Source: a virus. Taken from it: DNA of 64,000 bases. The position numbers were made by a program, and so were the translations under genes. The DNA lies in the IMG/VR virus record IMGVR_UViG_3300024256_000001, positions 1-64,000 of that record. One strand, 5' to 3'. Below the pieces are notes generated by a model. That model did not search any database. It was not told where the DNA came from and saw nothing but the letters and a program-made list of their open reading frames with translations. This document shows, piece after piece, positions 2,714 to 26,049 of this stretch (positions within the stretch are counted from its first letter, which is position 1; each line of letters begins with the position of its first letter).

Positions 2714-3017
2714 CCAGCCGCGCCAGCAGCCGCGCCTGCATCGCGTCGTATGCGCCAGCCACGCGCCCCGCGACGTGCGCCACCGCATCCAGTTCGCCAC
2801 CACGCGCCGGTAGCGCCTTCGCCAGCTGGGCGCAGCGGGTCAGCTCGCGCTCTGCGTCCAACAGGGCCGGTAGACGCCCCCGCAGCGCCGCCGCTGCGTC
2901 AGCGTGCCCCAGGGCCTCCAGCGCCTTGCACAACCCCTCCTGGGCGCGCTGGGTGACCTCTGCGGGCGTCAGGTCGGCCAGCTCCCCCGCTCGGCTCTCG
3001 GTCAGCTCAAGCCGCAT
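2691..3017 (-). CDS. hypothetical protein
   Basis: 108 aa, A/L/E-rich and helical. TAATG overlap with the stop of the 1075-aa gene. Third codon positions are G/C-rich as expected for coding sequence. Confidence 0.4.
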   Translation of the reverse strand: MRLELTESRAGELADLTPAEVTQRAQEGLCKALEALGHADAAAALRGRLPALLDAERELTRCAQLAKALPARGGELDAVAHVAGRVAGAYDAMQARLLARLDEAVRSA

Positions 3018-6000
3018 TAGAACAGCCCCCCTTGTGACGCCGCCGCGTCAGCCTCTTCGCGCTCGCCAGCCGCCACCGCATCAGCCGCCGCCTTGCTGGC
3101 CGCCGCCGCCGCTGCCTTGTCTGCATCGCTGCCGCTCTCGTGCGCCTTGCGGTGAGCCTTGGCCGCCGCCGTGTGTGCGTCCTGGGCGCGCTCCTTGGTG
3201 CTCGTCCACTTGTCGCCCCCCCACCGCTCGGGCAGGCCCTCGGCCTCGGCCTCGTGCTTGTCAGCCTCGCTGGCGTGGTCGGTGGCGGGGCCTGCCTTCT
3301 TGGCCGCCGCTGCCGCCTTGGTGGCCTTAACGTGCTTCTCCCGATCTGCTGCCGCCTTGGCCTGGGCCGCGTCCTCATCGGCCGCAGACCCGAACGCCTC
3401 TTCAAAAATCGTGTCGGCGCGCTTCTTGTCGTAGAACGCCAGCGGCTCCGCGCCCGGCTCCTGCTTGTGCGCCTGCTCGGCGTACTTGCGGAACACCTTG
3501 GCGAGCTGGACGGGGCCGCCTTGGTGGATCAGCGCGTTCAGGATCGCAGTCGCGCGCGCGTTCGGCCCCTGGGCAGGGTGCAGCCCCGTGGCCATCTTGC
3601 CGTCAACCTCGCGCGCCTTCACGTTGCGCTGCCACGCCTCCAGGCTGGCCGCGCGCCCCTTCTTGCCCTTGGGCAACCCGTACTTGTCCTGAATCTCGAC
3701 CACGGCGTCCAGCGCGTGCGCCAAGTCCTCTTTGACGCCGTAGTCAGCCCCCGCGCCCTCGGCCTGCACCATGTACGGGACCGCGCGCGCCAAGGACTCC
3801 ATGATGCTCTGCGGGACCTCGCTCAGCAGGTCCGCATCAGGCACCATCGACCCCACCAACACGTTCTCTACCAGGGCTACGCCGTTCTGATTCAGCCGCC
3901 CATTCTTCATGTATGCGTTTTGATTGGCCGCGCTGATCACGCCCGCCCGCTTGAGCTGGTTGACGAATCCCTCCGCGCCCTTGCCGCGCAGGTAGGCCGC
4001 CAGCGTCTCGTCAGCGCCCATGCTGGTGCCCAGCTCGGCCAACACCTTGCTGTCCATGCGCCGCGCCTGGGCCACCGCCATCGTGCGCGGGTCCATAGCC
4101 TGCGTCATGCTCTCGTTGAGCTGGCGCACGAGTAGCTGCTTGTGGGCGTCGTCGCGCGGCTGCACCTTGCGGACCAGAACGGGAGCCTTCATGGCGTCCA
4201 CGTCGTCAGGCTTGAAACCGAACTGCCGCGCGTTGTCCTTGAGGTAGCCCTTGAGATCAGCCGCCTTCGCGCCGCCCTGCCGGTAAGCCCGTTTCATGCT
4301 CATGCCGCGACTGTTGCCGCCCAGCACCACCCCGTTCTCATCCACGATTGGCGCGCCGTTGGTGGCGTCTGGGTTGGTGTTGATCACCAGATCGGGGCGC
4401 AGGTTCTCAGCGTTGCCGATCACCTTCAGCTGCTCGGCCTTGTCGCGATGATAGGCCCGTTCGTTGCCGACGTTGTGCCGTGCGTCCTTGCTGAAGGTGG
4501 CCGGGTCGTGAGACGTGATCACGTCGTCGGCATCCATCAGCACCCACTCAGCGCCCATCGGCTCAGGCTGGCCAAACTCGCCCGCGACGTAGACCGTCGT
4601 GTGTGCGCCCTTTTTGGTGGGCTCGGTGCGCGGGGCGACGGATTGCAGCCCGCCCAGGAAGACGCGCAGCTGGTTCATGGCCGGGTCGTCCCGCATGCCG
4701 GGGTATGCCTGGGCCATCGCCTGCAACTGGCCGATCATGTGCGCCGCCCGCACCTTGGCCAGCGCCTCCGCGCTCATCTTGGCATCCATAGCCAACGGCT
4801 GCTGCTCAGCGTCGGGGCCTGGGGTCAGGGCCAGCTTGAGCACTTCACGCAGGTGCGCGATCTCGGACGTGGCTCGGTTGACCACACGCTCCATCGCCGC
4901 AACGGACCGGGGCAGGTGGATCGCCGCAGCAACGTGCTTTGTATCCACCGCCTCCGCGCCGTCAGCCTTGGCCAGATTCTCAGCAGCTCGGGACAGCTTG
5001 CGGTAGTTGCGCGCGACCCAGGCCGTCTCACGGTCCAGCATCGACCCGATCAAGGTCTGCCGCGCGCCGTCCGTCCAACCCTTGCGCTCCAGGGTCCAGC
5101 GGATCGCGCGCTTGGCGTCGTCGGCGTTCACGCCAGCGCGCCCCAGCGCCTTCTCCAGCTTGGCGTGGACCTCGGGCAGCCGCTTGGCCATATCGGCAAA
5201 ACGCTGGCTGTCGGTGTCGCCTTTCAGCTCGCTCAGCAGCTCCGCAGGCACATGCTTTAGCACCGCACCCGCGTACTGCCTTGCGCGCTTCTCGGCCCAC
5301 TCGTAGAAGCGGGACCCGTAGTGCTCGGCGAGCATCTGCGTCCACTCGTCGTGGCTGACGGTCTTCTTTTTGCCGTCGTCGCCCTCGATGGTCAGGCCCT
5401 CGCTGTGGACCTTGTGAACCTTGATCTTCTTGCCGCCCAGGTTGACCTCTTCGCCCTCCTGGGCGCTGCGCGCGCTGCTGCTCTCCGCGTAGTAGTAGCG
5501 CCAGCCGCCGCCCGGCTTGGGCACGCGCCGAACGTACTTGTGCGAGCCCGCTTGCTGCCCCTTGATGGCCTTGGCGAGCATGGCGCTGAACGCGCCGTGA
5601 GCCTTGCCGAACAAGCCCAGCTGTTGCTGGGGTTCGGCCTGCTTCTTGCGCTCGCTCTGGCGCTCAAACAGCCCTTGCTGGGCGCTGTCGGCCTTGGGCT
5701 TGCGCCGGGCCTTGGCCGTGGCGGGGGCCTCGCCGCGCCGCCCCACCAGCGTGCGCCCAGCCCCGTCCGCCTGGACGTGGTAGCCCGCCGCCTTGAGCCG
5801 CCGCACCACCTTCTCATTGTGGCCGCGCTCAACGGCGTGCAGCTTGTCCACTTCCTCGGGGCTCAGGTGCGCCTTGGGCTTGCCCGTGTGATCCCGATGG
5901 TGCGACTCAATGTGCTTGACCTCTACCAGCGTGGCGCTGTGCTGCCGGACGTGGACGCCGCTCGCCCCACCCTTGCTCGGGGTGGCGTGCCTGCCCTCGC

Positions 6001-6244
6001 TGTGACCGTGCGCCCGTAGGTGGCGCGCCAGCTCCCCCTGCTCGATGCGCCGCAACGGTGCCTTGCGGTTGCTGCCCTCGTCGGCCGCGCCCAGGATGCT
6101 GGTCTGCCGGTGCTCCAGGCCGCTCGCCGCGTGCCAAGGGATCGTGTGCGCCGCGTCGGCCCACTTGCCGTTTTTGGGGCCAATGAACGGACCTTGCTGG
6201 GCCTTGGCGATCACGTCTCGCAGGGTCAGGTCACGCACCGACAC
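3017..6244 (-). CDS. large polyvalent-type protein with central ParB-like (DdrB-type) domain
   Basis: 1075 aa, GTG start 6 nt after AAGGAGG. The region VITSHDP...ENGVVLGGNSRGMSMKRAY (about 4085-4552) resembles ParB/Srx-fold GxxR domains. Carries the shared modules WADAAHTIPW and SHKYVRRVPKPGGGWRYYY, plus QQGLF, QLGLF and a C-terminal QGGLF. Confidence 0.6.
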   Translation of the reverse strand: MSVRDLTLRDVIAKAQQGPFIGPKNGKWADAAHTIPWHAASGLEHRQTSILGAADEGSNRKAPLRRIEQGELARHLRAHGHSEGRHATPSKGGASGVHVRQHSATLVEVKHIESHHRDHTGKPKAHLSPEEVDKLHAVERGHNEKVVRRLKAAGYHVQADGAGRTLVGRRGEAPATAKARRKPKADSAQQGLFERQSERKKQAEPQQQLGLFGKAHGAFSAMLAKAIKGQQAGSHKYVRRVPKPGGGWRYYYAESSSARSAQEGEEVNLGGKKIKVHKVHSEGLTIEGDDGKKKTVSHDEWTQMLAEHYGSRFYEWAEKRARQYAGAVLKHVPAELLSELKGDTDSQRFADMAKRLPEVHAKLEKALGRAGVNADDAKRAIRWTLERKGWTDGARQTLIGSMLDRETAWVARNYRKLSRAAENLAKADGAEAVDTKHVAAAIHLPRSVAAMERVVNRATSEIAHLREVLKLALTPGPDAEQQPLAMDAKMSAEALAKVRAAHMIGQLQAMAQAYPGMRDDPAMNQLRVFLGGLQSVAPRTEPTKKGAHTTVYVAGEFGQPEPMGAEWVLMDADDVITSHDPATFSKDARHNVGNERAYHRDKAEQLKVIGNAENLRPDLVINTNPDATNGAPIVDENGVVLGGNSRGMSMKRAYRQGGAKAADLKGYLKDNARQFGFKPDDVDAMKAPVLVRKVQPRDDAHKQLLVRQLNESMTQAMDPRTMAVAQARRMDSKVLAELGTSMGADETLAAYLRGKGAEGFVNQLKRAGVISAANQNAYMKNGRLNQNGVALVENVLVGSMVPDADLLSEVPQSIMESLARAVPYMVQAEGAGADYGVKEDLAHALDAVVEIQDKYGLPKGKKGRAASLEAWQRNVKAREVDGKMATGLHPAQGPNARATAILNALIHQGGPVQLAKVFRKYAEQAHKQEPGAEPLAFYDKKRADTIFEEAFGSAADEDAAQAKAAADREKHVKATKAAAAAKKAGPATDHASEADKHEAEAEGLPERWGGDKWTSTKERAQDAHTAAAKAHRKAHESGSDADKAAAAAASKAAADAVAAGEREEADAAASQGGLF

Positions 6245-6415
6245 GGGTCACCTCCTTGCGCAGCCACTCGGGAACACGGCCACCGTCAGCGCGCAGATGA
6301 TCGTACAGCTCCCGGCACAAGCGCGCACGCGGAACGATGCCGGGCTCGGGGCGGATCAGCCCGCCGACGGGGCATAACATCTTGATCAGGTTAGTGGCCT
6401 GGGTGGGCGTCATGC

Positions 6416-6419
<4 letters not shown>
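6231..6419 (-). CDS. hypothetical small protein
   Basis: 62 aa. ATGA overlap with the stop of the SNF2 gene, and overlaps the start of the next gene by 14 nt. Confidence 0.45.
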
Positions 6420-10008
<3,589 letters not shown>

Positions 10009-10009
<1 letters not shown>

Positions 10010-12363
10010 TACCGCTCCTGTCGGTCGGGGCTCCCGTGTTCCTCATAGTCGAGGTTGAAAGCCCGCGCCATGATAGCCGATGCCGTGCTGCCTGCGTAGG
10101 CGTCAGGATAGGCCAGCGCCCCGCAGTAGTAGCTGTCTGTATCCGTGTCCAGCTGGATCACAGACCCACTGGGCCGGTAGTCGTATTGTACAGCTGTGAC
10201 CTTGTGGCCTGCCGCACGCAGCCGCCCCAGGTTGACGTGTAGCGCCGTGTGGAGTGTGTGTGCGCCCAGGTCCCCGCCGCTGCTCTTAGCGAGCCGCTGG
10301 GGTGCTCTGGGCTCGCCGATGGCCACTAGCCCCAGGTCACCGCGCGCCTTGCTCCTGTGGTCGCGTAGCGCGTCAGCCACAGCGGCGAAACTCTTGGGCT
10401 GCCCGGCGAGGCTGGCGTATGCGGGGTGTGCGCCTTCCTCAGAGCCCTTTGCGTACTTGCCCATCTGATAGGTGAAGCCCGTCCGCTTCTCCAGCTCCAC
10501 ATACTGCTGAAACAGGTCAGGGTTGTGGGTCGCCGCCGTCAGCAGATCGTGCCCGTCCGCGAAGACGCAGAACACGCAGGACAGCCGCCGCATGCCCAGG
10601 TCATAGGCTGCGTGGTGAGGCACGCCGCTGGCCTTGATGTTGTCCCAAACCTGTTCTTCGGTCCACCCGCTGATCGGCAGCCAGTCGTCCACCTCTCGCG
10701 CGCCGCTGCTGGCGTCTGATCGGTCAAAAACCAGCTTGTTAGCGCGCTCGGTGCTCTCCTGGGCGCGAAGCCCCATCGCGTTGAGGATGCGCGGCTTATG
10801 ACCCTTGCCGTTCTTGGCCTTGGCCTGCTTCGCCAGCGCCGTCATCAGCTTGCGAATGTCGGCGCGCTTGTGCTCGGACGTGCAGAACCGTGACCCGCTG
10901 TCAGGCCACGGGTTAGGCGCGCCCCAGCTAAGGGTTTCGGCGGGGTCTTTGTCTTTGCGCTTTCGTGCTGCGCTCTCCAGCAGGTACGCGGCGCGCTGCT
11001 TCCGGCTCACCGTCTCAGCCAAGCTGGGGGATGCGTCCAGTGACCCCTGCGGTGGGTGCGTGGGCAGGTGCTCGGGCAGCTTGGCAGCCAGCGCCGCCAC
11101 AGCCGCCCCCATCTCTGCCTTGTAGCGTTTGCTCTCGGCCGCGCGCTTGTCTGCCTTGGGCGCTGGCAGTAGATCGAACAGGTCGCCCCATGTGCCCAGG
11201 CCCGCCACCGTCGTGTCCTCGATGCGCCCCTGGAGCTGGTAGTAGCGGACCTCAATGTGCTGTAGCAGGTCGTTTTTCTGACGCTGCACAACCTCCATGC
11301 GGATCCCGTAGTGGTCGCTCTGCTGCTGGGCTAGCTCTTTGGTGCCCTCCCACTCAACGCGGCCCAGGTCGGCGTGGACGGCCACGATCTTGCTTCGGTC
11401 GATGCCCTGCTGATCGGCCAGCTCCATGACCCGATCCATCATCGCCTGCGAGTCCTTGCCGCCCGACGTGTTGATCAAGATGGTGTCGTAGCTGCCCAGG
11501 TCCGGCACCCAATCGGGGTGGTCGGTGGGGTGGATGGCCTTAGCGACTGCCTTCTTGCTCTTGCCCCGGAGCTGGGCCGTGGTGAACAGCGCATCCGAGA
11601 TCCTGCGGTCGCCCAGCAGATCAGCCAGCGTGTCCCGCCCAGCCGCCAGCACGTCAGCGTAGGTGTGCAGGCCCGCCGCGCTCAACGTCGGTAGGTCACG
11701 CTCCCAGGTGCGGTCTAGCTTGCTGTAGGGCTGCACCACGACGGGGCGCGGGCGCGCTGGCAGGTGCTCCAGCCCATCGGGCTTGATCTGGAGTAGGGCG
11801 CGAACCTCGGGCGCGTCGAAGTAGTCATATCGCGCCGCGCGTGCCGCCAGCCGCTCCCGCTGGCGCGCCGTGCCGCTCTTGCCGCCAGCGGTCAGGTCAG
11901 CCAGCAGCCGCGCCCGGTGCTGGTCGATGGCCTCCGCGTGGTAGCCGTGCAACCGTCGCCGCAGCTCATCCCGACTCAGGTGCTCCAGGGCTCCCGTCTC
12001 ATCGTGGCGCACCAGCACTTTGCCGCCGTGCTCGGCCACTACCTCAAGATGCCCGTCTTTGTGGCGGAACTTGGCCCCCTGCACCAGCTCGTCAGCGTGC
12101 GCCAGCCCGCGCCCGCCGCCCACCCCGTAGAAGTAGCGCCAGCCGCCGCCCGGCTTGGGCACGCGCCGCAGGTACTTGTGCGACCGGGCCTTAGCCAACA
12201 GCGTCCGAAACGCGGAGCTGGGCAGGTCGGCGCGCTCACACTTGGCCAGCCGGTCCATGATGCGCGTGATCTGCGTCTGGTGATGGTCCCCGCGCGGGGT
12301 GCCCCTGTGCCAGTCCAGCAGCATGCGCTGGCGATCCAGCTCGGCCAGGATGCGCGTCAGCAT
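10009..12363 (-). CDS. PP-loop ATPase / PAPS-reductase-like (IbrA/DndC-like) domain protein
   Basis: 784 aa. PP-loop ILINTSGGKDSQ, then SRFCTSEHKR and SCVFCVF, as in PAPS-reductase-fold enzymes (about 10459-11490). The N-terminus has SHKYLRRVPKPGGGWRYFY followed by a small beta-rich segment. Confidence 0.65.
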
Positions 12364-17000: not shown

Positions 17001-17443
17001 TGCTCGCGCAGTAGGGCCGTGCGCCGCAGGGCTGACGTGCCGCCGTGCGCCAGCTCCGCGCTCAGCTGATCGTTGCCCAGGTCGATAGCTCGGTCGCTCT
17101 CGATCTCGTGCGCCTCATGGTGCGCAACACCGTGGCCGTCCGGCGCGTTGTGGTGGCCGCCTGGGTACCAGTAGTGGCCGTGCCCGTCCGTCCAGCCGCC
17201 TTTGCGGCTGCGCTTGGCGGGGTGGTAGCCCGCAGGCGGCTTGTTGGCCTTGGGCGCGGCTGGCGCGGGCTTGGGCGCGGGCTTGGGCGCGGGCTTGGGC
17301 TGGCCGAACAGGTCAAGCTGCCCCCCAATGGGCTTGGTGGGCACCGTCTTGGTGGCCTGGGCCGTCTTGGCGCGCGCGACCATATCCCCGAACAGGCGCA
17401 TCTGGCCGTGTTGCTCGGTGCTGTTGCGGTACTTCTTGCCCAC
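14057..17443 (-). CDS. large multidomain protein, no recognisable catalytic core
   Basis: About 1128 aa from GTG 17443 (AGGAGA 5 nt upstream; the track start 17473 overlaps the upstream gene). The N-terminus has QMRLF, QLDLF, a KPAP repeat and KPPAGYHPAKRSRKGGWTDGHGHYWYP. Contains an internal 45-nt duplication (15353-15397 and 16190-16234). Confidence 0.6.
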   Translation of the reverse strand: MGKKYRNSTEQHGQMRLFGDMVARAKTAQATKTVPTKPIGGQLDLFGQPKPAPKPAPKPAPAAPKANKPPAGYHPAKRSRKGGWTDGHGHYWYPGGHHNAPDGHGVAHHEAHEIESDRAIDLGNDQLSAELAHGGTSALRRTALLREQGHRQRHAAHAAAQAVEPPVVVVPEPTPAVVPEPTPAVVPEPEPEPEPEQIGRYQVRESPGEGTGSNYHVFDTQTGQAVDKPPSSPMLTTRGEGAAAAAAWNDAHERGTDPLTEDAAAHAARWRMRLGEMRAGELRDLARDAESNIKALEHSPGDYRARRSQALLGAIKTERARRRDQQRRQREAARPEHATGLAGELEKLRAVLRTATPAEKRAARDLVDQAAAGLKAGLDATNAAIMEGQLRNWREALATQPRQLSAAELRQRSEAGKAGAERPATRPEATREQLRQIADLSSRGAVAQGQLDTSRANWTPLDPQRAELRAQAAQIRTEAGRQIWQRPWVDGMEQRIPKDKHRELVERKIREGKPVPQDVIDSHAGLAQDAAGADLHGWARQLERLVDSSSTADDHTTPTGRRAKPQAERDKEIQALAHKVATWAQTPEPDGGLGLHFGRDNDAANSLKEGATWLHDGSKKRTHGERQAARRAMLSSALKLIEAGKAKRAPAAPAAPAAPAAPAAPAAPAAQAIRQLAAGVRDLSAAELSQRSEAGKAKHPIIGRDPVPDEIPHAVAVSAFAGTSHTPERRAETVQGEYVNHLNDLGKRLTRAADTPEKVARAAEWFAEYRAGYRRRFTAWLSARASVMSPLVTGPARFPVASNRKRSNSADKRYDELEGFANKAQRRIFNEIDPKVISTDRGDARELLTQRLAEREAAHEKMKQGNKILRSKKLDDVGKRAAIEALGLDPSLAMRRDFGWSHGGYNGFSTTNSLARIKADRAKLETMSAEAERPDLEQHEFPEHGLVIEDDANANRIRLHFDGKPDPAMIAKLKANGFKWSRSNSAWQRLRNDNARHTLKYQFGWDVTGATEAEPAAEPAAEPAAPDAPTPPRPVARGDWKNAPDGSTVHTPQGALWLTRTGKVWVDTDGGRYHPKEAKRRASYMESMEKLGRGHAVRPIMITAAAEALTKSARGSIFGRMVLDRLES
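15435..15497. repeat. tandem 9-nt repeat inside the 1128-aa gene
   Basis: Seven units of GCAGCGGGG-like sequence, encoding (PAA)n. Confidence 0.9.
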
Positions 17444-17456
17444 CAGACTCTCCTGC

Positions 17457-18446
17457 TCAGGTCGCGAAGGCACCCAGGCTCATGTACTTCACTTTGATCC
17501 GGTAGGTGGCCGCGTTGGTGAAGTCCTCGTTGTTGACCCGCAGGTAGAGCGAGCTTGCGCCGTCCCCGAAGAACGGGATCGCGAACTGGCCCGACGAGAT
17601 GCCAGCCGCGCGCGGACCCAGCTCCGGCCCCGGGTCGATGAAGATCGGGCTGAACGCCTCGCCGAATAGCCCCTGCTGCATATCGGTCAGGATCGCATCC
17701 TTGTAGATCACCACCGACGCCTGCTGCCCCGACCCGCCGACCCGCTCGATGCTCGCCCCGACGATCAGGACGTTTGCCGCCGCCAACGCGATCAAGGTGT
17801 CCTCGAAACCGCTCGCCGCAATCGAGGCGGTCGTGACCTCGGCTTCAAGGATGCCCGACGCGGGCACGCCGGCCGGGGTGACTACGGTAACGATGGCACC
17901 TGTGCGCCCCAGCCCATTCACGAGTGTGTCATCGCCGGAATCAAGCGCGCGGAGCCGCACGTCCACAGCACCAGCCGTCGCATCCACAAACGCGAACGCT
18001 GTGCCGGCCGGGTGAGAGTTGAAACTGAGTGCTGGCGCGTAGGTCGACCCTACGCTACCGATATACGCCGCGTTGGTCACGTCGTACCACTGCGCATCGA
18101 TGTAGTCCCCTGCGCCATTCGAGACACCGACTGCGCCGGCCAGAGACGCCTTGCTCCCCGCAGGGATCGTGAAGACGCCCGCCGCCAAGCCCAGCCCAGC
18201 GGCCGGTTCCTCCGTGTCAAACGGGATGGTGTCGCCGTCCGAGACGTTGGTGTCTGCACCTGCCATCCGAAGGTGGTGAACCGTCACGGCATCGCCGCCG
18301 CCCGCCGCCGCCGCCACGTTGACCCAGGCCGACCCGTTCCACGCCAGAACCTCGTCGTTCGCGGGGGTCGGCGCGGTCACGTCGGTCAGGTCGTCCATGG
18401 TGGACGCGCCACCGCCGCCGCTGCCGTCGCCTTCGAGCGTGGCCAT
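17457..18446 (-). CDS. fibre-like virion protein
   Basis: 329 aa. N-terminal MDDLTDVTAPTPANDEVLAWNGSAWVNV matches the LxDLxDV...W motif common at tail and head fibre N-termini. The remainder is G/A/V/T-rich and beta-like. TAATG coupling upstream. Confidence 0.4.
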   Translation of the reverse strand: MATLEGDGSGGGGASTMDDLTDVTAPTPANDEVLAWNGSAWVNVAAAAGGGDAVTVHHLRMAGADTNVSDGDTIPFDTEEPAAGLGLAAGVFTIPAGSKASLAGAVGVSNGAGDYIDAQWYDVTNAAYIGSVGSTYAPALSFNSHPAGTAFAFVDATAGAVDVRLRALDSGDDTLVNGLGRTGAIVTVVTPAGVPASGILEAEVTTASIAASGFEDTLIALAAANVLIVGASIERVGGSGQQASVVIYKDAILTDMQQGLFGEAFSPIFIDPGPELGPRAAGISSGQFAIPFFGDGASSLYLRVNNEDFTNAATYRIKVKYMSLGAFAT

Positions 18447-18787
18447 TACACCCGCCCCTGTGCCGTGAGGTAGACCACTGGGGCTGCAGCCACGCCCAGC
18501 AGCGCGAAGGTGACACGGAAGGCCTCAACCATGGGGCCGTCAATCAACACGGTGTCCGTCTCGGTCGCGCCTGTCTGGTGCGGCTTCGGCGTGGTCTGAT
18601 CGCCGGGCAGGTACAGCTCCACGTCGTAGGTGCCGCTGTCCAGCCCCGTGACGTGAATCTGATAGTAGGCGTTCATATCGGCCGGGCGGTAGCCCAGGTC
18701 AGGCTTACCCATGACCACGGGGTCCGCGTTGGGCGCTACCACGTTCACGGCTGCCTTGCTGCGGGTCCTGTAGGGGCTGACGCTCAT
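18446..18787 (-). CDS. hypothetical protein
   Basis: 113 aa, beta-rich composition, tightly packed between its neighbours. Confidence 0.45.
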   Translation of the reverse strand: MSVSPYRTRSKAAVNVVAPNADPVVMGKPDLGYRPADMNAYYQIHVTGLDSGTYDVELYLPGDQTTPKPHQTGATETDTVLIDGPMVEAFRVTFALLGVAAAPVVYLTAQGRV

Positions 18788-19288
18788 CTAAGCACCTCCT
18801 TGTGCGCAGGATACCAGATCGGCCGCGCGTGCGTGAATGCGCGCGGCCGTGCCGTGGTCGCGCCAGATCAACCAGTAGACGCGCCGCCGCAGGACCCAGG
18901 GGTCCGCGTACCGCACCGCTGACCCGAAGGACAGCAGCACGGCCTCCGCGTGCGCGTAGGCTTCGGCCTCTACGCGCCGCCGAAACCACGGGTCCAGCGC
19001 GTAGCGTAGCGGCCACAGGATGCGTGACCCCTCGCCTTGCAGCACATGCACGGCCTCGTGCACCAGTAGCGCCAGATCGGCCAGCGTGGGCCGGGCCACG
19101 TCTGCCGACGGCCGAAGCCAGATTTGCCGCGCTGGGTGGATCGTGATGCTGCGGCCTTTGCCCAGGATCAGCGGCTCAGTGCGCAGGGCCACGCGCCAGC
19201 CGCGCGCGCGCAGCATGCGCAGCACGGCCGACCAGCGATCCTGAACGCTGCCGTGCATCCACGGCCCTGGGTCCACCAGCTCGATCAC
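18788..19288 (-). CDS. putative zincin-like metallopeptidase (HExxH)
   Basis: 166 aa. LALLVHEAVHVLQGE contains an HExxH motif after a hydrophobic helix. GTGA overlap with the upstream gene. Confidence 0.4.
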   Translation of the reverse strand: MIELVDPGPWMHGSVQDRWSAVLRMLRARGWRVALRTEPLILGKGRSITIHPARQIWLRPSADVARPTLADLALLVHEAVHVLQGEGSRILWPLRYALDPWFRRRVEAEAYAHAEAVLLSFGSAVRYADPWVLRRRVYWLIWRDHGTAARIHARAADLVSCAQGGA

Positions 19289-20760
19289 AGCGTTTCCGCC
19301 AGCTGTTGGATCAGGGCTGGGCGCTTGCCCAGGCCCGGCTGCCCCCGCATGGCCACCAGCTTGCGAAGCGTGGGCGTGTCCAGCCCGCGCGCTGCCGCCC
19401 AGCGTGCGATCACGGGTACGGCCTGGGCTGCCTGGGCCGCGTAGTCGGTCGCGTCCAGCCCAGCGAACAACCGCCCCCGGTCGGTGCGCTCTAGCTCGCC
19501 GTGTAGCGTGTGCAGCCTGTCCAGCGTCTTGAGCACCTTGGGGTCAGCTTCGCTCGCGTCTGGCCCCGCCTCCCACCGGATCTTGAACTCGTCGGATCGG
19601 CGCTCTTTGGACTGCTTGCCGCCGCCGCGTGTGACCCAGCCGACCGGGCGCATGCCCTTGCCCTCCAGGGCTCGGTACGTTGACCCCTTCTCCGTGCTCA
19701 AGCTGTAGGTGACCAGCCGCCCGCGCCCCGTCTTCTCCATCGCCGCTAGGATCTGCCCAGCCAGCGCGGAGCTGGCGAACGGGGTAGTGCCGTCCGACGC
19801 GATCCGGGTTAGCTCCAGCTCGTTGGCCTTCTTGGCCGGGTCCCCGCCGCCGCTGGGCGTGTTGGCCGTAGCCACCGCCACCAGCCGCCCGCCCACCCGG
19901 AGCCCCACCGCGAAGACCAGCCCGCGAGGATTGAAGCCCTCAAACGCGCTGTGGTGCTGGTTGATGAAACGCTCAGCCTCGACCTTGCTCACGTTCACGA
20001 TCCGCCGCTTCTTGGTGGTCGCGTCCATGCTGTCCTCAACGATGGCCTCCAACAGCCACCGGGGCGCACCACCCGCCGCGCCCACGCGCTCCGTCGTGTG
20101 TCGCACCACCCGCCCCTTGGCGTGCTGCTTGGCCTCGCGCCCAGGCGCAACCCCACCGTGCCCCTCGCCCAGCACCAGCGCCACAGCCCCGCGCAGGTCA
20201 CCCACAGGCAACCCTGGGTAGGCGGCAAGGTCAACCATGCTTAGGCCGTGGGTCGGGTCGGGCTCGTTGTCCGCGCTCCCGTGCTCGGCGTGCCAGCTGT
20301 AGGCCCCCGCCCAATCGGGGTCAGCCACCGCACGCCGCAGAGCGCCCACAATGCCCTCTGCGGCCTCGCCTTGCTCTGGGCCGGGTGCTGGCCCCCGATA
20401 ACCCTTCTCGCCCGCCTGGGGGGCACCCTGGGCACCGTGGCGCGCCCAATACGTCTCCCCGCGCAGCCGCTTGGCTGGGTTGGGTAGCTGGGGCGCAGGC
20501 GCAGGCGCGGGCGCGCGATAGCTCAGCAGGTCCAGCTGGTCACGCGGGCGGGCCGTGTCCACCCCATGTCCATGCCGCGTCTGGTTGCGTCTGGTAGGCT
20601 GAGCGGGGGCACCGCCCAGGCTTAGCTGACGCGGGGCAACCTCGCCCAGCGGCAACGCCCCTTGCCCATAATCGTACTGGTAGTGTCCCGGCGAGCCCGT
20701 GCGCTTGCCCTTGCCTTTGTAGGGCGTCCAGCCGCGCGCCTTGAGGATCTGGCCATACAT
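19285..20760 (-). CDS. multidomain protein with GNAT-fold (Mom / XF1762-like) domain
   Basis: About 491 aa from ATG 20760. The region IVNVSKVEAERFINQHHSAF...GLVFAVGL...LVAVATANTP...ELELTRIASDG...FASSALAG...LVTYSL..EKGSTYRALEGKGMRPVG (about 19624-20004) follows the phage GNAT-like acyltransferase pattern. The N-terminus has GWTPYKGKGKRTGSPGHYQYDY, QLSLG and QLDLL. Confidence 0.45.
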   Translation of the reverse strand: MYGQILKARGWTPYKGKGKRTGSPGHYQYDYGQGALPLGEVAPRQLSLGGAPAQPTRRNQTRHGHGVDTARPRDQLDLLSYRAPAPAPAPQLPNPAKRLRGETYWARHGAQGAPQAGEKGYRGPAPGPEQGEAAEGIVGALRRAVADPDWAGAYSWHAEHGSADNEPDPTHGLSMVDLAAYPGLPVGDLRGAVALVLGEGHGGVAPGREAKQHAKGRVVRHTTERVGAAGGAPRWLLEAIVEDSMDATTKKRRIVNVSKVEAERFINQHHSAFEGFNPRGLVFAVGLRVGGRLVAVATANTPSGGGDPAKKANELELTRIASDGTTPFASSALAGQILAAMEKTGRGRLVTYSLSTEKGSTYRALEGKGMRPVGWVTRGGGKQSKERRSDEFKIRWEAGPDASEADPKVLKTLDRLHTLHGELERTDRGRLFAGLDATDYAAQAAQAVPVIARWAAARGLDTPTLRKLVAMRGQPGLGKRPALIQQLAETL

Positions 20761-20770
20761 GCCCGCGAGT

Positions 20771-20920
20771 CTACCGCACGCGGGTGTACTTGCGCCCTTT
20801 CTTCGACGCGATCCCGCACTCAACCAGCCAGTCGCGCGCCGCCTGGGCGTGCTCGGCGTGCTCAGGCCGCAACTCCTTGGTGGGGGGCAGCTGGCCGCCC
20901 ACAGGGGTCACGTCGAGCAT
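20771..20920 (-). CDS. hypothetical small protein
   Basis: 49 aa (MLDVTPVGGQLPPTKELRPEHAEHAQAARDWLVECGIASKKGRKYTRVR). G/C-rich third positions. Fills the gap between the wHTH gene and the GNAT gene. Confidence 0.3.
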   Translation of the reverse strand: MLDVTPVGGQLPPTKELRPEHAEHAQAARDWLVECGIASKKGRKYTRVR

Positions 20921-20937
20921 CGCCCGCGCCGCGTACC

Positions 20938-21159
20938 TCACGACGCCACCCACAACAGGGGCGAGGTCTTGTTGCCGCCCGTGCTCTGGGCCTTGACCGC
21001 GCCACGCCGCTCCAGGCCGCGCAGCGCGCTGACAACCTGGGGGCGCGTCAGGTCCGTCAGCGCCTCCAGATCCAGCCGCCGAACGGGCTTCTTGGAAGCC
21101 CGCAGCGCCTCCAGCACAACGATTTGGGTCGGCCCCATTCCTCGATTTCTCTTGAGCAT
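20938..21159 (-). CDS. winged-helix DNA-binding protein
   Basis: 73 aa. IVVLEALRASKKPVRRLDLEALTDLTRPQVVSALRGLERRGAV reads as a MarR-like wHTH. TAATG overlap with the terminase stop. Confidence 0.5.
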   Translation of the reverse strand: MLKRNRGMGPTQIVVLEALRASKKPVRRLDLEALTDLTRPQVVSALRGLERRGAVKAQSTGGNKTSPLLWVAS

Positions 21160-22859
21160 TAGTCGTCCTCATCATCCCCAAAGTCCAGGCCGGGGAACAT
21201 GCCTTGTATACCATCCCACAGCTGCCCCGCCCGCATCGACTCGGCCTCAACCCGGGGCGTGTCGTAGTGCGCGCCCTCGGAGTCGTGGATCACGAGCCCT
21301 GTGGCCACCCGATGCGTGAACGCCTTTCGCAGCACGCACTCCGCGATCCATAGGGCCATGACCGTATCGTCGTGGGCCTCGCGCCCCAGGCCCCACAGCT
21401 CGTTGACCAGCACGTCCACAGCCGCGCGGTCCTCGGGTGTGCGGCTGGGTAGCACCACCTTGCCGTTTTCAAACAGCGCGCCCAGGGACGGCACGCCCTC
21501 CCAGGGGTCGGCTTTCTTCGCGCCCGTGGTTAGGTGCGGCTTGATCGGCAGGTCCGTAGTCTGCCGCAGGCCCATGTAATGCAGCTCCCCGAATGCGTTG
21601 CGCTCCACCGCCACAGCCGCGACCTTGCCCAACCCCCCGTATCGCTGAAACTCGGCCATAACCTCGCCGCGAATCCGCGCTGGGGTAACGCCGCGCATGC
21701 GCTGGATGCCCAGCAGGTAGCGGTCACCGCTGGCGTCCCGCGCCCAGGTCACGCCCACCGTATAGTCGCTGTCCTGCTTCGTCGCGCGCGCCGCGTCGGT
21801 CACTAGGGCGAAGTCCCAGCCTTGCACGATCTCCAGGCCGCGCAGCCCGTTGGGCACGCTGCCCAGGCTCAGGTGAGCACCGCGCCGCTTGGCCGCCTCC
21901 AACCAATCCATCTTGAACGCTGCCGCGCTATCGTCCTGTACCGCGTGCATGAACTCGCGCGCGAACAGCAGCGAACCCATGCTGTACCGCTCGCCCAGCA
22001 GGTACTCAATGGGCCGTTCCTCTGGCCACAACACCTCTGCCTCACCGTCTACCTCCACGCGCTCCACCAGCTCGCGCCCCGTCTTGGGGTCAGGCTTGGT
22101 CAGGATCCGGTGCCCGTCAGGCCACTTGATGATCGCGGGGTCCTCGATGGTGCGCCACAGCGGCGACTCTTTTAGATGGTGGTACAGGTCGTCTGCGTGC
22201 TTGCGCGTCCCGATCACGGCCAGCAGGCCGCCCCGGCTCAGCATGGGCAACACGGTGCCACCCCACCACAACCGCGTCTTCTCGCGCTGGCCTGCCGTGT
22301 AGGTGGTCCGGTCGTCCTCTAGGTCGTCGCACAGGATGAGATCGAAGTGCCCGCCCGTGATGGCCCCGCCGCTGCCCACCGCCTCGATGGTGGGGTCCAC
22401 GCTGGCCAGCGTGCGCGTGACGTAGATTTGGGTATTCGTCCACTTCTCGTCGCCGCCAGCCCGGAACGGGCCGCACCCCAGGCCGGGCGCGCTGCACCAG
22501 TCCGCGACCACGCGCTCGCTGGTCAGCAGCGCCCGCAAGCGCCGGACCCGCTTCTCTGCGACCCCAGCCGCTTCGCTGATCCAGAGGATTCGCACGTTGC
22601 GATTCAGGCAAACCTGCCGCAGCGCTACCGAGATCCCCAGCTCCGTCTTGCCGTGGTCGCGGGGGGCCAGCAGTAGCAGCCGCCCCTTGCGCTTGGTGCG
22701 CCGCGCGTCGGCTAAAGACCCATCCAGCAGGTCCAGCCAGCGCCGCCTGTGGGGCGCTTGCCGCATGCCGCAATAATAGGTGTCGAAAAATGCAGGACTG
22801 CCCGCGCTCAGGGCGCGTCGGCCGTCTGGGCTCGTTAGAAGCTGGGCAGCTACGGACAC
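21159..22859 (-). CDS. terminase large subunit
   Basis: 566 aa. Walker A LLLLAPRDHGKTE, Walker B FDLILCDDLEDD, and a C-terminal RNaseH-like nuclease half ending in an acidic tail. Confidence 0.85.
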   Translation of the reverse strand: MSVAAQLLTSPDGRRALSAGSPAFFDTYYCGMRQAPHRRRWLDLLDGSLADARRTKRKGRLLLLAPRDHGKTELGISVALRQVCLNRNVRILWISEAAGVAEKRVRRLRALLTSERVVADWCSAPGLGCGPFRAGGDEKWTNTQIYVTRTLASVDPTIEAVGSGGAITGGHFDLILCDDLEDDRTTYTAGQREKTRLWWGGTVLPMLSRGGLLAVIGTRKHADDLYHHLKESPLWRTIEDPAIIKWPDGHRILTKPDPKTGRELVERVEVDGEAEVLWPEERPIEYLLGERYSMGSLLFAREFMHAVQDDSAAAFKMDWLEAAKRRGAHLSLGSVPNGLRGLEIVQGWDFALVTDAARATKQDSDYTVGVTWARDASGDRYLLGIQRMRGVTPARIRGEVMAEFQRYGGLGKVAAVAVERNAFGELHYMGLRQTTDLPIKPHLTTGAKKADPWEGVPSLGALFENGKVVLPSRTPEDRAAVDVLVNELWGLGREAHDDTVMALWIAECVLRKAFTHRVATGLVIHDSEGAHYDTPRVEAESMRAGQLWDGIQGMFPGLDFGDDEDD

Positions 22860-22986
22860 GGGCCTCCGGTCAACAGCGGTGCAGACGCCCCGCGCCCGCT
22901 AGCTAGACGGGGCCTGCGCAGGCTTACAGTCAGCGGGGCGTCTACATCGCCGCTTGATCATGCCGGGGCGCGTGGATCTGGTCAAG

Positions 22987-25900
22987 TCAGTGCTTGAACA
23001 TGATCCGCAGCTTACCGGCGATGTAGCTGTGTTTGTAGCCGGGCAGCTTCTCGTGGTCCGTCGCCACGTCGATATCAGTGTGGGTCAGCCCCAGCATGCG
23101 CGACACCGGGCGCTGCAACACCTCATGGATGCTCAGCTCCCCCATGCGACTACCCTGATCATGCGCTGCATCGGCCAAGGCGAAGTGCGCCGCGTCCCGC
23201 CTGTTGTCCTGGGTCGCAATGCGCCCGTGCTTGGCCAATCCCACCCGCTCCAGAGCCTTGTAGCCACGGGTCTTCTGGATCGCCTTGCGGCTGGCCTCTT
23301 TCTCTTCGCTCTCCAGCGGGTCATTGCCAAGCGCGTGCAGATCAGCAGCGGCTTTCATAGCCGCCGGGCTGTGCTTTGCCGCCAGCCACTTGGGCGCAGT
23401 GTGCTGAGCGATGCCGGCCGGCGCGGAGTCGAAGAACGACTTTAGCGCAGGGCTACGCCCGATGTGCGCCGCCACATGCTCGTGACCAGCCTCCCACTCG
23501 TCGGGGCTCTTGTGGTCAAAACTGGTGTCGCCGTGCGCCACCTTGCTGAAGGCTGTGGTGGACGGGTGCTTCGCCAGCCGCTTCGCCTTCGCAGCTGCTT
23601 GCTGCTCATGGTAGCTGGCTCGCTCATCGACTGCCGCAGTCAGCGCATCGCGCCCGCGCTTGGGCTTGTCGGGCTCGTGACCCTTGGGCTTGTCGGGCTC
23701 GGTGCCGTGCGTCTTGTTGTAGTGGGCCTGCCCGCCAGCCACGCCGCGCTTGTGGCCCTTGCCGGCCCCTGCAGCGCGCTGGCTCTCCTCTGCCGCGTCG
23801 TAGCCCTTCAGGCTGGCCTCGCTCATCTCCTCTCGCGGATACCCCAGGCCGTGCTGCTGCCAGCCGTGCGCGTAGTCGCGCCGGTCGGGGTTGGAGTCGG
23901 CCGTCAGCGCGGCTCTGTCGTCGGCCAGATTCTTGGCCCCCACAGCCATCAGGTCCGCCTGGGCCGGCTCGGCCGGCTGGGCCCGCCGCTGCTGCTCTAC
24001 CTTGGCCTCCGCTTTCCAAGACGGTTTGCCGTGCATGGTGCCACGCTCGCCGAAGTCCGCGCCGTGGCGGGCGATGAGCCCCAGCTGGTCGTCCGTCAGG
24101 TCGCGGAACATCGCCGACTTGGCCTCGGCGTCCGGCATGCCCAGGTTTTTGCGCGAAACCTTCATCTCGCCGCCACTGCTGAGCTTGACCCGCACGCTCA
24201 AGCGGCTGGCGCGGGTCACCGTCCCCTCCCCATACATGGTGTTGACCTTGGCCCCCACTTTGGCGTCCCGCGCCCCAAACTGCTTGTTGCTGCGGTGGCT
24301 GTTCCGCGCCGCTCGCCCTGCGTCGTGGATGGCCTGCACCCTGCCTCTGCTCTGGTGCTCTTTCACCACCTTGACGGCATCAGGGTGTAGGTCGGTCTTG
24401 CCCTGCTTGTGCGCCTCCAGCGCCGCCTTGTCGTATGCGTCCCGGGCCGCGCCATGCTTCTCAGACCTGCGGTGCCTGTCGGCGTCGTACTCGCGCAGGG
24501 CGCGCTTGCTCATGCGCGACCGCTGCAGGCCGCTGATCTCGCCAATGCCCGGCTGGGGTGCGTCCTCATTGGCAAGATGCTCATAGCGCCCCATCTGGTG
24601 CGTGGCCACGCTGGCCTGGGCCGCCTCGCGCAGCTTGCTGGGCGCGGTGTTGCGGGTGGCCTCCGCTGCCGCCGCGTTCGGGTCCTTGGTGCTGGCCGCC
24701 TTCAAAGCAGCCTCCACCTGGGGGGCCAGCTCATCGCGGCTCATATGGACGTTGTGGGTGTCGATGTAGTGCCCCACCATCTGCTTGAAGTAGGTCGGAT
24801 CGTCGTTGGCCATCTCCAAATGGTCGGCCGCGTATTCGCTCAGGTCGGCCACAGCGGCCTGAACCACAGCCGCCTTGCGCTGGTCTGTCGGGATCTCGCG
24901 CAGCCCCAGGCGCTTGGCCTCCGCTGTATCCAGAGGCCCGTTGTAGGTGACCGTGCCATGCTTGAAGTCGGGGTGGTCGCCCACCGACGAATAGCCGCTG
25001 GGCACCGACGCGAAGCTAACCGGCCGATCATGCGCGCCATAGACCACGCTCGTGATCGTGTGCGGCTCAGAGTCCCGCGCAGCGTCGGCCGCCTTCACCT
25101 TGTCCAGCTTGCTCGCTTCCCCAGCCGCCGCCCGCTTGCGGTCCCGGTCCACGCGGTCAGCCGTCTCGGTGGCCGCGCTGGCCTTGTCCGACGCCTCTGC
25201 GAAGGGCTTGTGTGACCCGATGCCCACGCGCCCACCGGCACGGTGGAGCTGGGCCGCGTCGTCATGCGCGCCCCGCGCGAGCTGGTGCGCCCGCATGTGG
25301 TGCGGGTCCTTCGCCGCCTTGGCCGCCGCCTCGTGCTTCTCGGCCTGGGCCGCGTGGTAGTCCAGGGCCTTGTGGTGCTCGCTGCGCTCTTGACGGTCGG
25401 CGTTCTCGCTCTTGTTGTCGGCTCGACCGCTGACCCCCCGGCCGTGCTGGATCGTGTCCACGGGGCCGCTGGGGTCCATCGCACCGCCACGATGGAACAC
25501 GGCCGCCGCCTCGTGATCGTCCCGCGCCATCGCGTGAAGCTGTCGGACCTCCACGCTCCGGTGCCGGTCGTCGGCCATGCTGGCGTGCTCCCGGCTCGCC
25601 TCGTGGTGCCGCTCCGCGTGCTTCATGTGCTCCGCGTGCAGGCTGTCCTGCTTGTGCGAGCCGCCGTGCTCACCGGCCCGCGCCACACCCTTGCCGGGGT
25701 ACCAGTACTGACCGTGGCCGTCGGTGAAGCCGCCCTTTTTGCTGCGGGGCGCGGGGTGGAAGCCTGCGGGCGGCTTGTCGGCCGCCTTGGCCTTGGCCCC
25801 GCCCAGGCGCTCCTGGGCCGCCGCCAGCCGCGCTTTGCTGCTAGCGTGCGCAGCCTGGACGCCAGCGTTTGCCGCCGCCTGCGTGGGCTTGGGCTTGGGG

Positions 25901-26049
25901 GCAGGCACCGCGCCGGGCGTGCCCTTGGCCGGGCTCAGGGGCAGCTCGGGCTGCCCGAACATGCTCATTTGCCCTGCCGCCTCGGCCGCTTTGCGCCGCT
26001 GGGTGGCGTTGCCGCGCGCCTTGCGCAAGATCGTGCTAAACGTGGTCAT
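22987..26049 (-). CDS. large multidomain protein, no recognisable catalytic core
   Basis: 1020 aa. The N-terminus has QMSMFGQPE, a PKPKP linker and KPPAGFHPAPRSKKGGFTDGHGQYWYP. Also has His-rich helical segments and a small beta segment (VNTMYGEGTVTRASRLSVRVKL). Confidence 0.6.
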   Translation of the reverse strand: MTTFSTILRKARGNATQRRKAAEAAGQMSMFGQPELPLSPAKGTPGAVPAPKPKPTQAAANAGVQAAHASSKARLAAAQERLGGAKAKAADKPPAGFHPAPRSKKGGFTDGHGQYWYPGKGVARAGEHGGSHKQDSLHAEHMKHAERHHEASREHASMADDRHRSVEVRQLHAMARDDHEAAAVFHRGGAMDPSGPVDTIQHGRGVSGRADNKSENADRQERSEHHKALDYHAAQAEKHEAAAKAAKDPHHMRAHQLARGAHDDAAQLHRAGGRVGIGSHKPFAEASDKASAATETADRVDRDRKRAAAGEASKLDKVKAADAARDSEPHTITSVVYGAHDRPVSFASVPSGYSSVGDHPDFKHGTVTYNGPLDTAEAKRLGLREIPTDQRKAAVVQAAVADLSEYAADHLEMANDDPTYFKQMVGHYIDTHNVHMSRDELAPQVEAALKAASTKDPNAAAAEATRNTAPSKLREAAQASVATHQMGRYEHLANEDAPQPGIGEISGLQRSRMSKRALREYDADRHRRSEKHGAARDAYDKAALEAHKQGKTDLHPDAVKVVKEHQSRGRVQAIHDAGRAARNSHRSNKQFGARDAKVGAKVNTMYGEGTVTRASRLSVRVKLSSGGEMKVSRKNLGMPDAEAKSAMFRDLTDDQLGLIARHGADFGERGTMHGKPSWKAEAKVEQQRRAQPAEPAQADLMAVGAKNLADDRAALTADSNPDRRDYAHGWQQHGLGYPREEMSEASLKGYDAAEESQRAAGAGKGHKRGVAGGQAHYNKTHGTEPDKPKGHEPDKPKRGRDALTAAVDERASYHEQQAAAKAKRLAKHPSTTAFSKVAHGDTSFDHKSPDEWEAGHEHVAAHIGRSPALKSFFDSAPAGIAQHTAPKWLAAKHSPAAMKAAADLHALGNDPLESEEKEASRKAIQKTRGYKALERVGLAKHGRIATQDNRRDAAHFALADAAHDQGSRMGELSIHEVLQRPVSRMLGLTHTDIDVATDHEKLPGYKHSYIAGKLRIMFKH

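Follow-up and report, generated by a model that had tools for sequence, protein, structure and literature searches.

Six large genes within a head-morphogenesis operon

We analysed a 64,000-nt window of virus DNA (positions 1-64,000 of the IMG/VR record IMGVR_UViG_3300024256_000001; ~68% GC), in which six large genes that are candidates for encoding capsid-delivered cargo are interleaved with those for the large terminase (TerL), the portal and a MuF-like minor head protein in a single tightly coupled operon on the minus strand. In order of transcription, the operon encodes p1020, TerL, p73, p512, p166, p113, p329, p1138 and the portal, followed by p784, p1197, p62, p1075, p108, the MuF-like protein, an S78-like protease, a scaffold-like protein and the start of the major capsid protein. 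A first-pass annotation had listed both the six large open reading frames (ORFs) and the morphogenesis genes around them, and both groups hold: the six are co-oriented genes for proteins of 1020, 512 (491), 1138 (1128), 784, 1197 and 1075 aa, and the morphogenesis genes are supported by profile matches and by synteny with relatives. The genes for p73, p166, p113, p329, p62 and p108 were missing from that earlier list. Across positions 306-26049, all frames with strong support from GC content at third codon positions (GC3, 0.82-0.90), those of the six included, lie on the minus strand, and GC content at second positions (GC2) in these frames is 0.46-0.56.

The overlaps between genes in the TerL-to-protease stretch are 1-17 nt long, and only three intergenic gaps exceed 60 nt. 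The annotation had pointed to three overlaps as evidence that the large genes are translationally coupled to morphogenesis genes. All three are real, and two have the proposed partners (TGATG at p1138/portal and ATGCTGA at portal/p784); the third, TAGTG, involves no morphogenesis gene and joins two cargo genes, p784 and p1197. Another five overlaps, each of 1-4 nt, are present. A scan of 1-20 kb revealed no enrichment of terminator-like or promoter signals.

Distinct cores had been proposed for four of the six proteins, and profile searches bear out each of them. p1075 (3017..6244) contains a ddrB-ParB domain at aa 565-694 (nt 4163-4552; PF18763, E 2e-20), and its region of aa 440-960 aligns by tblastn with ddrB of phage P1 (27.7% identity over ~207 aa, E 4e-8). 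p1197 (6416..10009) has an SNF2 and Helicase_C core at aa 556-1110 (nt ~6680-8344; phrog_62, E 2e-56); its match to a 'DarB-like' PHROG involves the helicase C-domain alone (E 7e-6). The core of p784 (10009..12363), at aa 293-636 (nt ~10456-11487), is of the PP-loop/PAPS-reductase-like type, with SGGKDS at aa ~300 (PF01507, E 1.1e-14; phrog_424, E 1.1e-33). Its nearest analogues among defence models are BrxP (E 1e-9) and SspD (E 9e-5), with all scores far below the equivalog cut-offs. p512 (19285..20823; 491 aa from the ATG at 20760, as in public calls) carries a Mom-like/XF1762 GNAT core at aa 265-398 (nt ~19630-20031; phrog_1384, E 1.2e-9), which scores 51.9 bits against NF045478, above the cut-off of 50.

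The other two proteins had been described as lacking a recognisable core, which still applies to p1020 and no longer to p1138. The latter (14057..17473; 1128 aa in public calls) has a DUF3560-like core at aa ~720-1010 (nt ~14444-15316; phrog_19458, E 7e-23), located after a long helical region. By tblastn this core matched proteins of 403 plasmid records at 26-36% identity, in alignments of up to 290 aa; conjugative plasmids account for 217 of the records, many of the matches are annotated as DUF3560, and some are fused to ArdC. p1020 (22987..26049), which lies upstream of TerL, matched nothing in Pfam, PHROG, NCBIfam, PADLOC or PDB beyond a sub-threshold similarity of aa 337-386 to DarA_C (E 0.2), and a search of 5.8e9 proteins returned a single partial homologue besides p1020 itself. 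Sequence searches of PDB with all of the six except p1197 gave nothing significant, and profile scans detected no peptidase family in any of the six.

Shared leaders and the HKY module

Reading of the translated operon proteins first drew attention to a set of leader motifs that is common to all six large proteins and occurs in no other protein of the window. An amphipathic helix, F-x-x-[IL]-L-x-K-A, lies upstream of a tag formed by a basic GG-aromatic hairpin, which takes either a short form (type A, KGGWTDGHGxYWYP) or the form of a ~110-aa module (HKYxRRVP…GGGWRYxY). In BLASTP comparisons among the paralogues, the leaders of p1020, p1138 and p1197 share 23-30 residues with 72-91% identity, which define the type-A tag (consensus PPxGYxPAxRSxKGGWTDGHGxYWYP), and p784 and p1075 share 84 residues with 44% identity, which define type B, hereafter the HKY module. 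In all six frames of the window, the pattern GG[WF]x1-6Y[WYF]Y occurs five times, in-frame and once each in p1020, p1138, p1197, p784 and p1075, as compared with 0.0001 occurrences expected from residue shuffles of the six proteins; p512 has the hairpin variant GSPGHYQYDY. For Q[LM]x[LM]F, the six frames likewise give exactly five occurrences (0.04 expected from shuffles), always within a leader and always followed by Gly. Its wider form, Qφx[L/M][F/L], which is the canonical β-clamp-binding motif (PMC11139829), has eight matches among the six, of which seven fall within leaders and are spread over five proteins. It is absent from the 11 remaining operon proteins and from 9,003 aa of further proteins encoded in the window, and a comparison set given as 11,785 aa of window proteins likewise has none.

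The arrangement of these elements varies. In p1020, the helix FSTILRKAR (26014-26040) is followed by QMSMFG (25957-25971) and the type-A hairpin PAGFHPAPRSKKGGFTDGHGQYWY (25699-25770). The p512 leader reads YGQILKARGW…GSPGHYQYDY (tag at 20668-20697) and then QLDLL (20524-20538). That of p1138 has QMRLFG (17390-17404), QLDLFG (17306-17320), a Pro-rich linker and a type-A hairpin (17165-17236), and that of p1197 has its type-A hairpin (9911-9982) ahead of QLDLL (9878-9892) and QLSLFG (9800-9814), again with a Pro-rich linker. In p784 the HKY module spans aa ~47-165 (nt ~11869-12225), with FRTLLAKAR and HKYLRRVPKPGGGWRYFY, and p1075 begins with GPFIGPKNGKWADAAHTIPW (nt ~6134-6193) and has QLGLFG (5609-5623) and an HKY module at aa ~208-330 (nt ~5255-5623). 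p1075 also ends in SQGGLF (3020-3034), a terminus that is kept in the ParB orthologues of relatives with 48-68% GC. The ending [SNQ]Q[GVR]GLF-COOH is found as well in the ParB-type proteins L040:5270-9772, L014:6532-9558, P0012, P0016, P0043 and P0129, and resembles C-terminal β-clamp-binding motifs such as QLGLF of Pol II. After its tag, p1020 contains His/Ala-rich helical repeats (aa ~120-290, 25180-25690; for example HAERHHEASREH and HHKALDYHAAQAEKHEAAAKA), which are also seen in the relative L012 (5221-8316); a stretch resembling them lies near the C-terminus of p1075.

The N-termini of MuF proteins do not carry the leader helix. Neither word-indexed protein searches with the p784 tag region and the p1138 leader nor literature searches with the motif strings gave anything useful or relevant. 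We also considered whether type-A tags might be divergent HKY modules and rejected the idea: a hidden Markov model (HMM) of the HKY module does not detect them, and we therefore treat type A, which is the rarer of the two, as a separate tag class.

An HKY profile was built from the alignment of the two window copies (p784 and p1075) and used in an exhaustive HMMER search of 1.84 billion cluster representatives, which returned 458 at E<=1e-3 and 151 at E<=1e-10. The proteins that bear the module range from 117 to 3608 aa and contain one to five copies, often two to five in giant polyvalent proteins, where an enzymatic unit follows each copy. In P0004, for example, tags lie at residues 29, 320, 1398 and 2348, with a methyltransferase at ~1200-1290 and SNF2 at 1848-2233. 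A near-invariant core, HKY[ILV][RK]R[VI]P-x3-10-[YW]RY[FY]Y, is followed by xVTGGxGLGH and then by a small β-domain that ends in HDE[ST]G. Among 24 large HKY proteins, Pfam scans identified LPD1 in 12, ddrB-ParB in 11, SNF2/ResIII in four and InPase in three, as well as Strawberry-notch, C5-methylase and DUF6884; among 77 smaller ones, ddrB-ParB was found in 10, LPD1 in three and ART-PolyVal in two, together with InPase, RelA_SpoT and DarA_C. MuF was found in none of these 101 proteins. The HKY set also shows type-A-like hairpins, internal QxxMFG/QLDLFG and C-terminal QxGLF, and a further motif, GP[FY]IGP[RK]GGKWADxxHTIPW, is present in 20 of 152 proteins of the set. The domains counted here are those that mark the phage-type polyvalent class (PMC5512222), and leaders of this kind are widespread in polyvalent proteins.

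All of 10 HKY proteins checked come from Logan, JGI or ENA metagenomes only, on contigs of up to 104 kb. The module had no tblastn match in deposited phage genomes, and its commonest DNA pattern matched 12 times in IMG/VR and not at all in GTDB genomes. With an HMM built from 188 copies, the matches in the window are p784 (E 5.8e-39) and p1075 (E 2.2e-34) alone. No Pfam model covers the module, which is new relative to Pfam only and may equal an LPD that never entered that database. AlphaFold2 (AF2) run on the two-sequence alignment gave a model of low confidence (predicted local distance difference test (pLDDT) score of 55), of which only the order of secondary structure is therefore usable; it suggests a helix, a β-hairpin made of the HKY… and …RYFY strands, three more strands and then helices.

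Exchange of cores among relatives and the neighbouring genes

Relatives in IMG/VR, whose TerL is 51-75% and portal 36-73% identical to those of the window and whose GC content is 40-69%, have a common backbone of TerL-p113-fibre…portal-[large proteins]-MuF-protease-scaffold-capsid. The layout TerL-[cargo]-portal-[cargo]-MuF recurs in phages with portals that are 36-55% identical. In the closest relative, UViG_3300025112_000005 (80 kb), all six slots are present, and the morphogenesis proteins align over 86-100% of their length with 52-75% identity. This phage has orthologues of p784, p1197 and p1075. The proteins in the slots of p1138, p512 and p1020, in turn, align over 15%, 7% and 20% of their length, in the leader region only: behind the conserved leader, the p1138 slot encodes LPD1 (E 8.5e-21), and the p512 slot encodes DUF6884 and an HExxH motif, with a second, internal leader copy. 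Leaders are thus conserved while cores are swapped, which is the pattern expected of a delivery signal.

Tags are exchanged too. In the more distant L056 and L057 (portal 41% identical), HKY-tagged proteins flank the portal, and a DUF3560-like core is preceded by an HKY tag where the window has type A; the tag on the SNF2 orthologue of L005 is type-B-like. The relative L041 (54% GC) encodes a 1495-aa protein (362-4849) in which two type-A-like tags, a PP-loop domain (SYGMGVDS) and a ParB region are fused, a predicted Rosetta-stone link between the activities of p784 and p1075, and L012 encodes a 1320-aa protein, also a case of fused activities. Because the tags are interchangeable and the payloads exchangeable, a targeting or delivery element fits better than a part of each enzyme.

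TerL (21159..22859) was identified by phrog_38 (E 1.6e-68) and Terminase_6C, and the portal (12357..14057), which overlaps both of its neighbours, by PF04860 and phrog_12 (E 1.2e-43). The MuF/SPP1 gp7-like minor head protein (1658..2803; likely start the ATG at 2713) matches phrog_115 (E 7.9e-8), with a weak match to TIGR01641 that lies below the cut-off (E 4.8e-4), and is 37-62% identical to MuF homologues of relatives that adjoin protease and scaffold genes. Synteny and identity with relatives define the S78-like protease (996-1661) and the scaffold-like protein (306-929). The first ~80 codons of the major capsid gene (~243 to 1) follow, and the gene runs off the window; phrog_1028 (E 1.5e-38) matches within the block 1..1661 that comprises these three genes. 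The capsid N-terminus (~150-243) and aa 158-185 of the protease (1107-1190) share a peptide that is kept in relatives of 40-69% GC and may be a common maturation-cleavage or procapsid-docking element. We searched the cargo candidates for this peptide as well, and the sole match, a weak 13-aa stretch in p1075, was rejected.

Several small genes complete the operon. p73 (20938..21159), a MarR-like winged-helix protein of 73 aa that is kept in the closest relative, is coupled to the 3' end of TerL via TAATG. Nowhere upstream of TerL, where the gene for p1020 is located instead, was a small terminase recognised. In L017 (7000-9516), L027 (7390-9480) and L031 (4184-6790), the gene upstream of TerL is ribonucleotide-reductase-like, a label that rests on N-terminal motifs only (GSQRSLQFGG…NCTSCYV), rather than p1020-like; the presence of such a gene in distant relatives indicates that this slot is variable. 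p166 (18788..19288) contains HEAVHVLQ (HExxH), read from the sequence, and has only a sub-threshold match to eCIS_core/DUF4157 (E 0.067); with a homologue that is 49% identical in the closest relative, it is a candidate stand-alone zincin-like processing peptidase for the tagged proteins. In the closest relative, the syntenic protein, 1320 aa long, contains VHEFGH internally.

p113 and p329 (17457..18787), a small conserved protein followed by a fibre-like protein, are ordinary structural genes outside the tagged set. p113 is kept directly after TerL in many relatives, and the proteins at the position of p329 are fibre-like and 468-1467 aa long (L017:12033-16434, L025:2058-5600, L027:11995-15615, L031:12038-15649), with the N-terminus TTTxxGKVRLAT…AVTPAGL. 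A fibre gene inside the head module after TerL is in an unusual position, and its product could be a head fibre. Between p1197 and p1075, a 62-aa ORF (p62, 6231-6419) is homologous to the N-terminus of a 391-aa protein of L005 (9616-10791; 51% GC), which has the basic GG-aromatic motif GPRGGTRRKLPSGKWQY.

An identical p1020 is encoded on independent JGI and ENA metagenome assemblies of 77.4-78.4 kb, which indicates that the source is an uncultivated tailed phage, of marine type, with a genome of ~78 kb. Among 50,697 deposited phage genomes there was no megablast match, and TerL identity was at most 28.5%. A portal search found no relatives among 185,579 GTDB species genomes; with no portal locus there, and no match of a degenerate HKY DNA pattern in the same genomes, we dropped the idea of a prophage. 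The rest of the window encodes a D5-like primase-helicase (34676-36841), an RNA ligase upstream of the head operon (27970-28956) and an N6/N4 DNA methylase (29632-31107; Pfam match split) that is the sole methyltransferase of the window and lies outside the operon, all on the minus strand, as well as baseplate and virion proteins. A weak SLT-like lysozyme match also falls within 27970-36841 on the minus strand. Transcription diverges at ~37.1 kb, beyond which lies a plus-strand replication module with an exonuclease and a family-A DNA polymerase. No tRNA genes were found in the window.

Capsid delivery and competing explanations

To our knowledge, how a phage chooses the proteins that its capsid delivers is understood in only a few models (the T4 capsid-targeting sequence, the P1 DarB N-terminus and N4 vRNAP), and we know of no common packaging signal for the polyvalent proteins that were predicted in 2017. 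For the operon described here, we hold with moderate confidence that the six genes form a polyvalent/Dar-like arsenal of the phage type, unbundled into separate genes, with products that the leaders bring to the procapsid and that are ejected along with the DNA. Each protein would consist of a delivery leader and a DNA-directed core. The leader would combine an amphipathic helix (F-x-x-L-L-x-K-A) with a basic GG-aromatic β-hairpin (the short type-A variant or the ~110-aa HKY module with its small β-domain) and, usually, with Q-L-x-L-F-G in a disordered, Pro-rich segment; the cores would be a DdrB-like ParB, an SNF2 translocase, a PAPS-reductase-family PP-loop ATPase, a Mom-like GNAT, DUF3560 and one that is unrecognised. 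The six genes would be co-translated with portal and MuF late in infection, and the leaders would dock the proteins to the assembling procapsid via portal, MuF or scaffold, by analogy with T4 internal proteins and P1 DarB, whose capsid-targeting sequences are N-terminal. Ejected together with the DNA, the proteins would go on to target either that DNA as it enters or the defences of the host, through protection, modification or remodelling.

The single tightly coupled operon supports this explanation, as do the direct homology between p1075 and DdrB and the recurrence of the p784 and p1075 module in giant LPD1/ddrB-ParB/SNF2/InPase/ART-PolyVal proteins. A Dar-like or polyvalent identity had already been suggested in the first-pass annotation, and the DdrB homology, the HKY module in polyvalent proteins, the shared leaders and the swapping of cores strengthen it. 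The same annotation regarded the system as undescribed, which is true in part. The general theme of injected ddrB-ParB and SNF2 effectors encoded beside head genes is already published, and the cargo idea would be expected by specialists: Iyer, Burroughs, Anand, de Souza and Aravind (2017, J Bacteriol) predicted capsid delivery for ddrB-ParB and SNF2 effectors whose genes neighbour those of portal, terminase and MuF (PMC5512222). What appears new is the shared leader grammar, including a widespread module without a Pfam model and a clamp-binding-like peptide, and, as far as checked, the interleaving of six individually tagged genes with TerL, portal and MuF and the PP-loop, Mom-like and DUF3560 payloads, none of which the main text of that paper mentions.

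The resemblance to polyvalent proteins is close in several respects. The domains of p1075 (ddrB-ParB) and p1197 (SWI2/SNF2) are hub domains of the class as described (PMC5512222), and the six genes sit among late genes by portal, terminase and MuF, the setting for which co-injection with DNA is predicted. LPD1 occurs in the syntenic protein of the closest relative, and the HKY module occurs with LPD1, ddrB-ParB, InPase and ART-PolyVal. In contrast to the class, whose members have 2-15 disparate domains per polypeptide, the activities here are spread over six genes rather than fused in one polypeptide or to MuF, and each protein has a leader, one recognisable core at most and uncharacterised regions; relatives do fuse activities, as in the tag-tag-PP-loop-ParB protein of L041 and the 1320-aa protein of L012. 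A 2811-aa LPD1-containing polyvalent protein has been found in phi24B virions by mass spectrometry (bioRxiv 10.64898/2026.04.10.717836).

P1 heads contain six Dar proteins (DarA, Hdf, DdrA, DdrB, DarB and Ulx), and for DarB the N-terminal 30 residues suffice to direct it to the capsid (PMC9024508). As in P1, several large proteins would be made late, one of them homologous to DdrB. The P1 dar genes, however, form a separate late operon with lysis genes rather than lying among terminase and portal genes, and the Dar proteins have no consensus N-terminus (PMC9024508), whereas the six proteins share N-terminal motifs. A methylase-helicase dyad of the DarB type was not found, p1197 having SNF2/Helicase_C only, and likeness to DarA is confined to the sub-threshold DarA_C match of p1020.

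The T4 targeting sequence is ~10 aa long and is removed by the prohead protease. The leaders described here, like that sequence, are shared N-terminal elements of several cargo candidates, but they are 35-240 aa long and composite, have no known cleavage and show no sequence similarity to it. In T4, the internal proteins IPI-III and Alt have a common short N-terminal targeting sequence and are injected against restriction (PMC9024508, PMC12373910). The DUF3560 proteins of conjugative plasmids align with the core of p1138, in which the domain is instead the C-terminal part of a leader-tagged phage protein encoded beside the portal. p784 shares its PP-loop motif and PAPS_reduct match with DndC, SspD and BrxP, but no family of their partners (DndA/D/E, SspA-C and the BREX core) turned up in scans of the operon proteins and of other proteins of the window.

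Packaging of the six proteins into virions is plausible, and encapsidation, ejection and an anti-defence function are what we infer for them. Several points weigh against this. The phage is known from metagenomes only, and the localisation of the six to virions is a prediction. The zincin-like MPTase domain, the most frequent hub domain of polyvalent proteins, was not detected in the six (p166 has its HExxH and sub-threshold match), and the main text of Iyer et al. mentions neither PP-loop/PAPS-reductase nor Mom among polyvalent domains (PMC5512222). The structural model of the HKY module is of low confidence. Packaging of a single polypeptide would need no repeated tags within one giant protein. 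Finally, Mom-like and PP-loop enzymes could equally act on progeny DNA in the cytoplasm before packaging, and the QLxLF motifs would point to a cytoplasmic partner, the β-clamp, rather than to the capsid.

The main alternative, which we think unlikely, is that the six are late cytoplasmic enzymes that are not packaged. Their leaders would tether them to DNA or, through QLxLF, to the host β sliding clamp, so that they modify or process progeny DNA around packaging in the manner of Mu Mom or through ParB and PP-loop chemistry like that of Dnd/Ssp/BREX (type 4), and the operon position would give only late timing. Known clamp binders include Pol II (QLGLF), UmuC (QLNLF), Pol III α (QADMF) and Hda. 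The motifs of the window (QLDLF, QLSLF, QLGLF, QMRLF and QMSMF) fit the canonical pattern (PMC11139829) and are located in N-terminal regions that are disordered, and ParB proteins have a conserved C-terminal QGGLF like C-terminal clamp motifs; at the same time, this likeness is a putative one based on pattern matching, and here a Gly invariably comes after the motif, which is embedded in a larger leader. The Mom-like GNAT of p512, the proximity of p784 to BrxP and SspD among defence models and the fusion of ParB and PP-loop in the L041 protein agree with cytoplasmic action as well. Such action leaves unexplained, however, the replacement of one core by an unrelated one after a conserved leader, in slots whose place next to the portal is fixed, and the co-occurrence of the HKY module with the non-DNA effectors InPase, ART-PolyVal and RelA_SpoT; moreover, the DdrB homologue of P1 is a head protein, and the phage has a family-A polymerase, with no clamp gene seen in the window.

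It is distinctly less probable that some of the six, above all p1020 and p1138 with their largely helical, low-complexity sequences, have a structural part in ejection or in an internal core and serve as a DNA conduit or scaffold, like T7 gp14-16 or P22 gp7/16/20, rather than as enzymatic anti-defence effectors. An enzymatic core is absent from p1020, the two proteins contain long stretches that are helical, His/Ala-rich or Pro-rich, and such a role is proposed by the authors of the phi24B study for their packaged polyvalent protein (bioRxiv 10.64898/2026.04.10.717836). Yet four of the six have clear enzymatic cores, the core of p1138 comes from a conjugative-plasmid family, the window has baseplate-wedge genes, a sign of a contractile or complex tail for which an ejectosome is unneeded, and conservation between close relatives is poor, unlike that of essential structural proteins. 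As for the large ORFs being ordinary tail or tape-measure genes, or chance products of high-GC DNA, which does yield long spurious ORFs (many on the opposite strand here), the combination of GC3 and GC2 is specific to these frames, the families match significantly, orthologues occur in relatives of different GC content and the same genes are called in independent public assemblies. This last reading is effectively refuted by the family matches, GC3 and orthologues.

The capsid-delivered arsenal also admits a bolder version, which we regard as speculative and rather improbable. The leaders would be the modular 'delivery code' of a large clade of uncultivated phages, in which the HKY module, the type-A hairpin and the GPRGGKWAD motif are interchangeable address units, each placed before an effector unit (a gene or a polyprotein segment) and jointly specifying encapsidation and ejection; QLxLF(G) would then be a true β-clamp motif that loads the injected enzymes onto the host clamp. 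If so, the host clamp would be a hub hijacked by capsid-delivered effectors, and the portable tag could package foreign proteins in phage heads.

Related leaders with swapped payloads, and one leader type that recurs in hundreds of metagenomic polyvalent proteins, together provide a testable candidate for a cargo signal, and the portability of a common leader makes the selection of cargo for the capsid directly accessible to experiment. Should the signal prove real, cargo sets would be predictable from sequence, the operon would point to new anti-defence enzymes of the PP-loop, Mom-like and DUF3560 types, and the leader would offer a tag with which to load heterologous proteins into phage heads. 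The clamp-binding-like peptide, for its part, suggests an unexpected target in the host.

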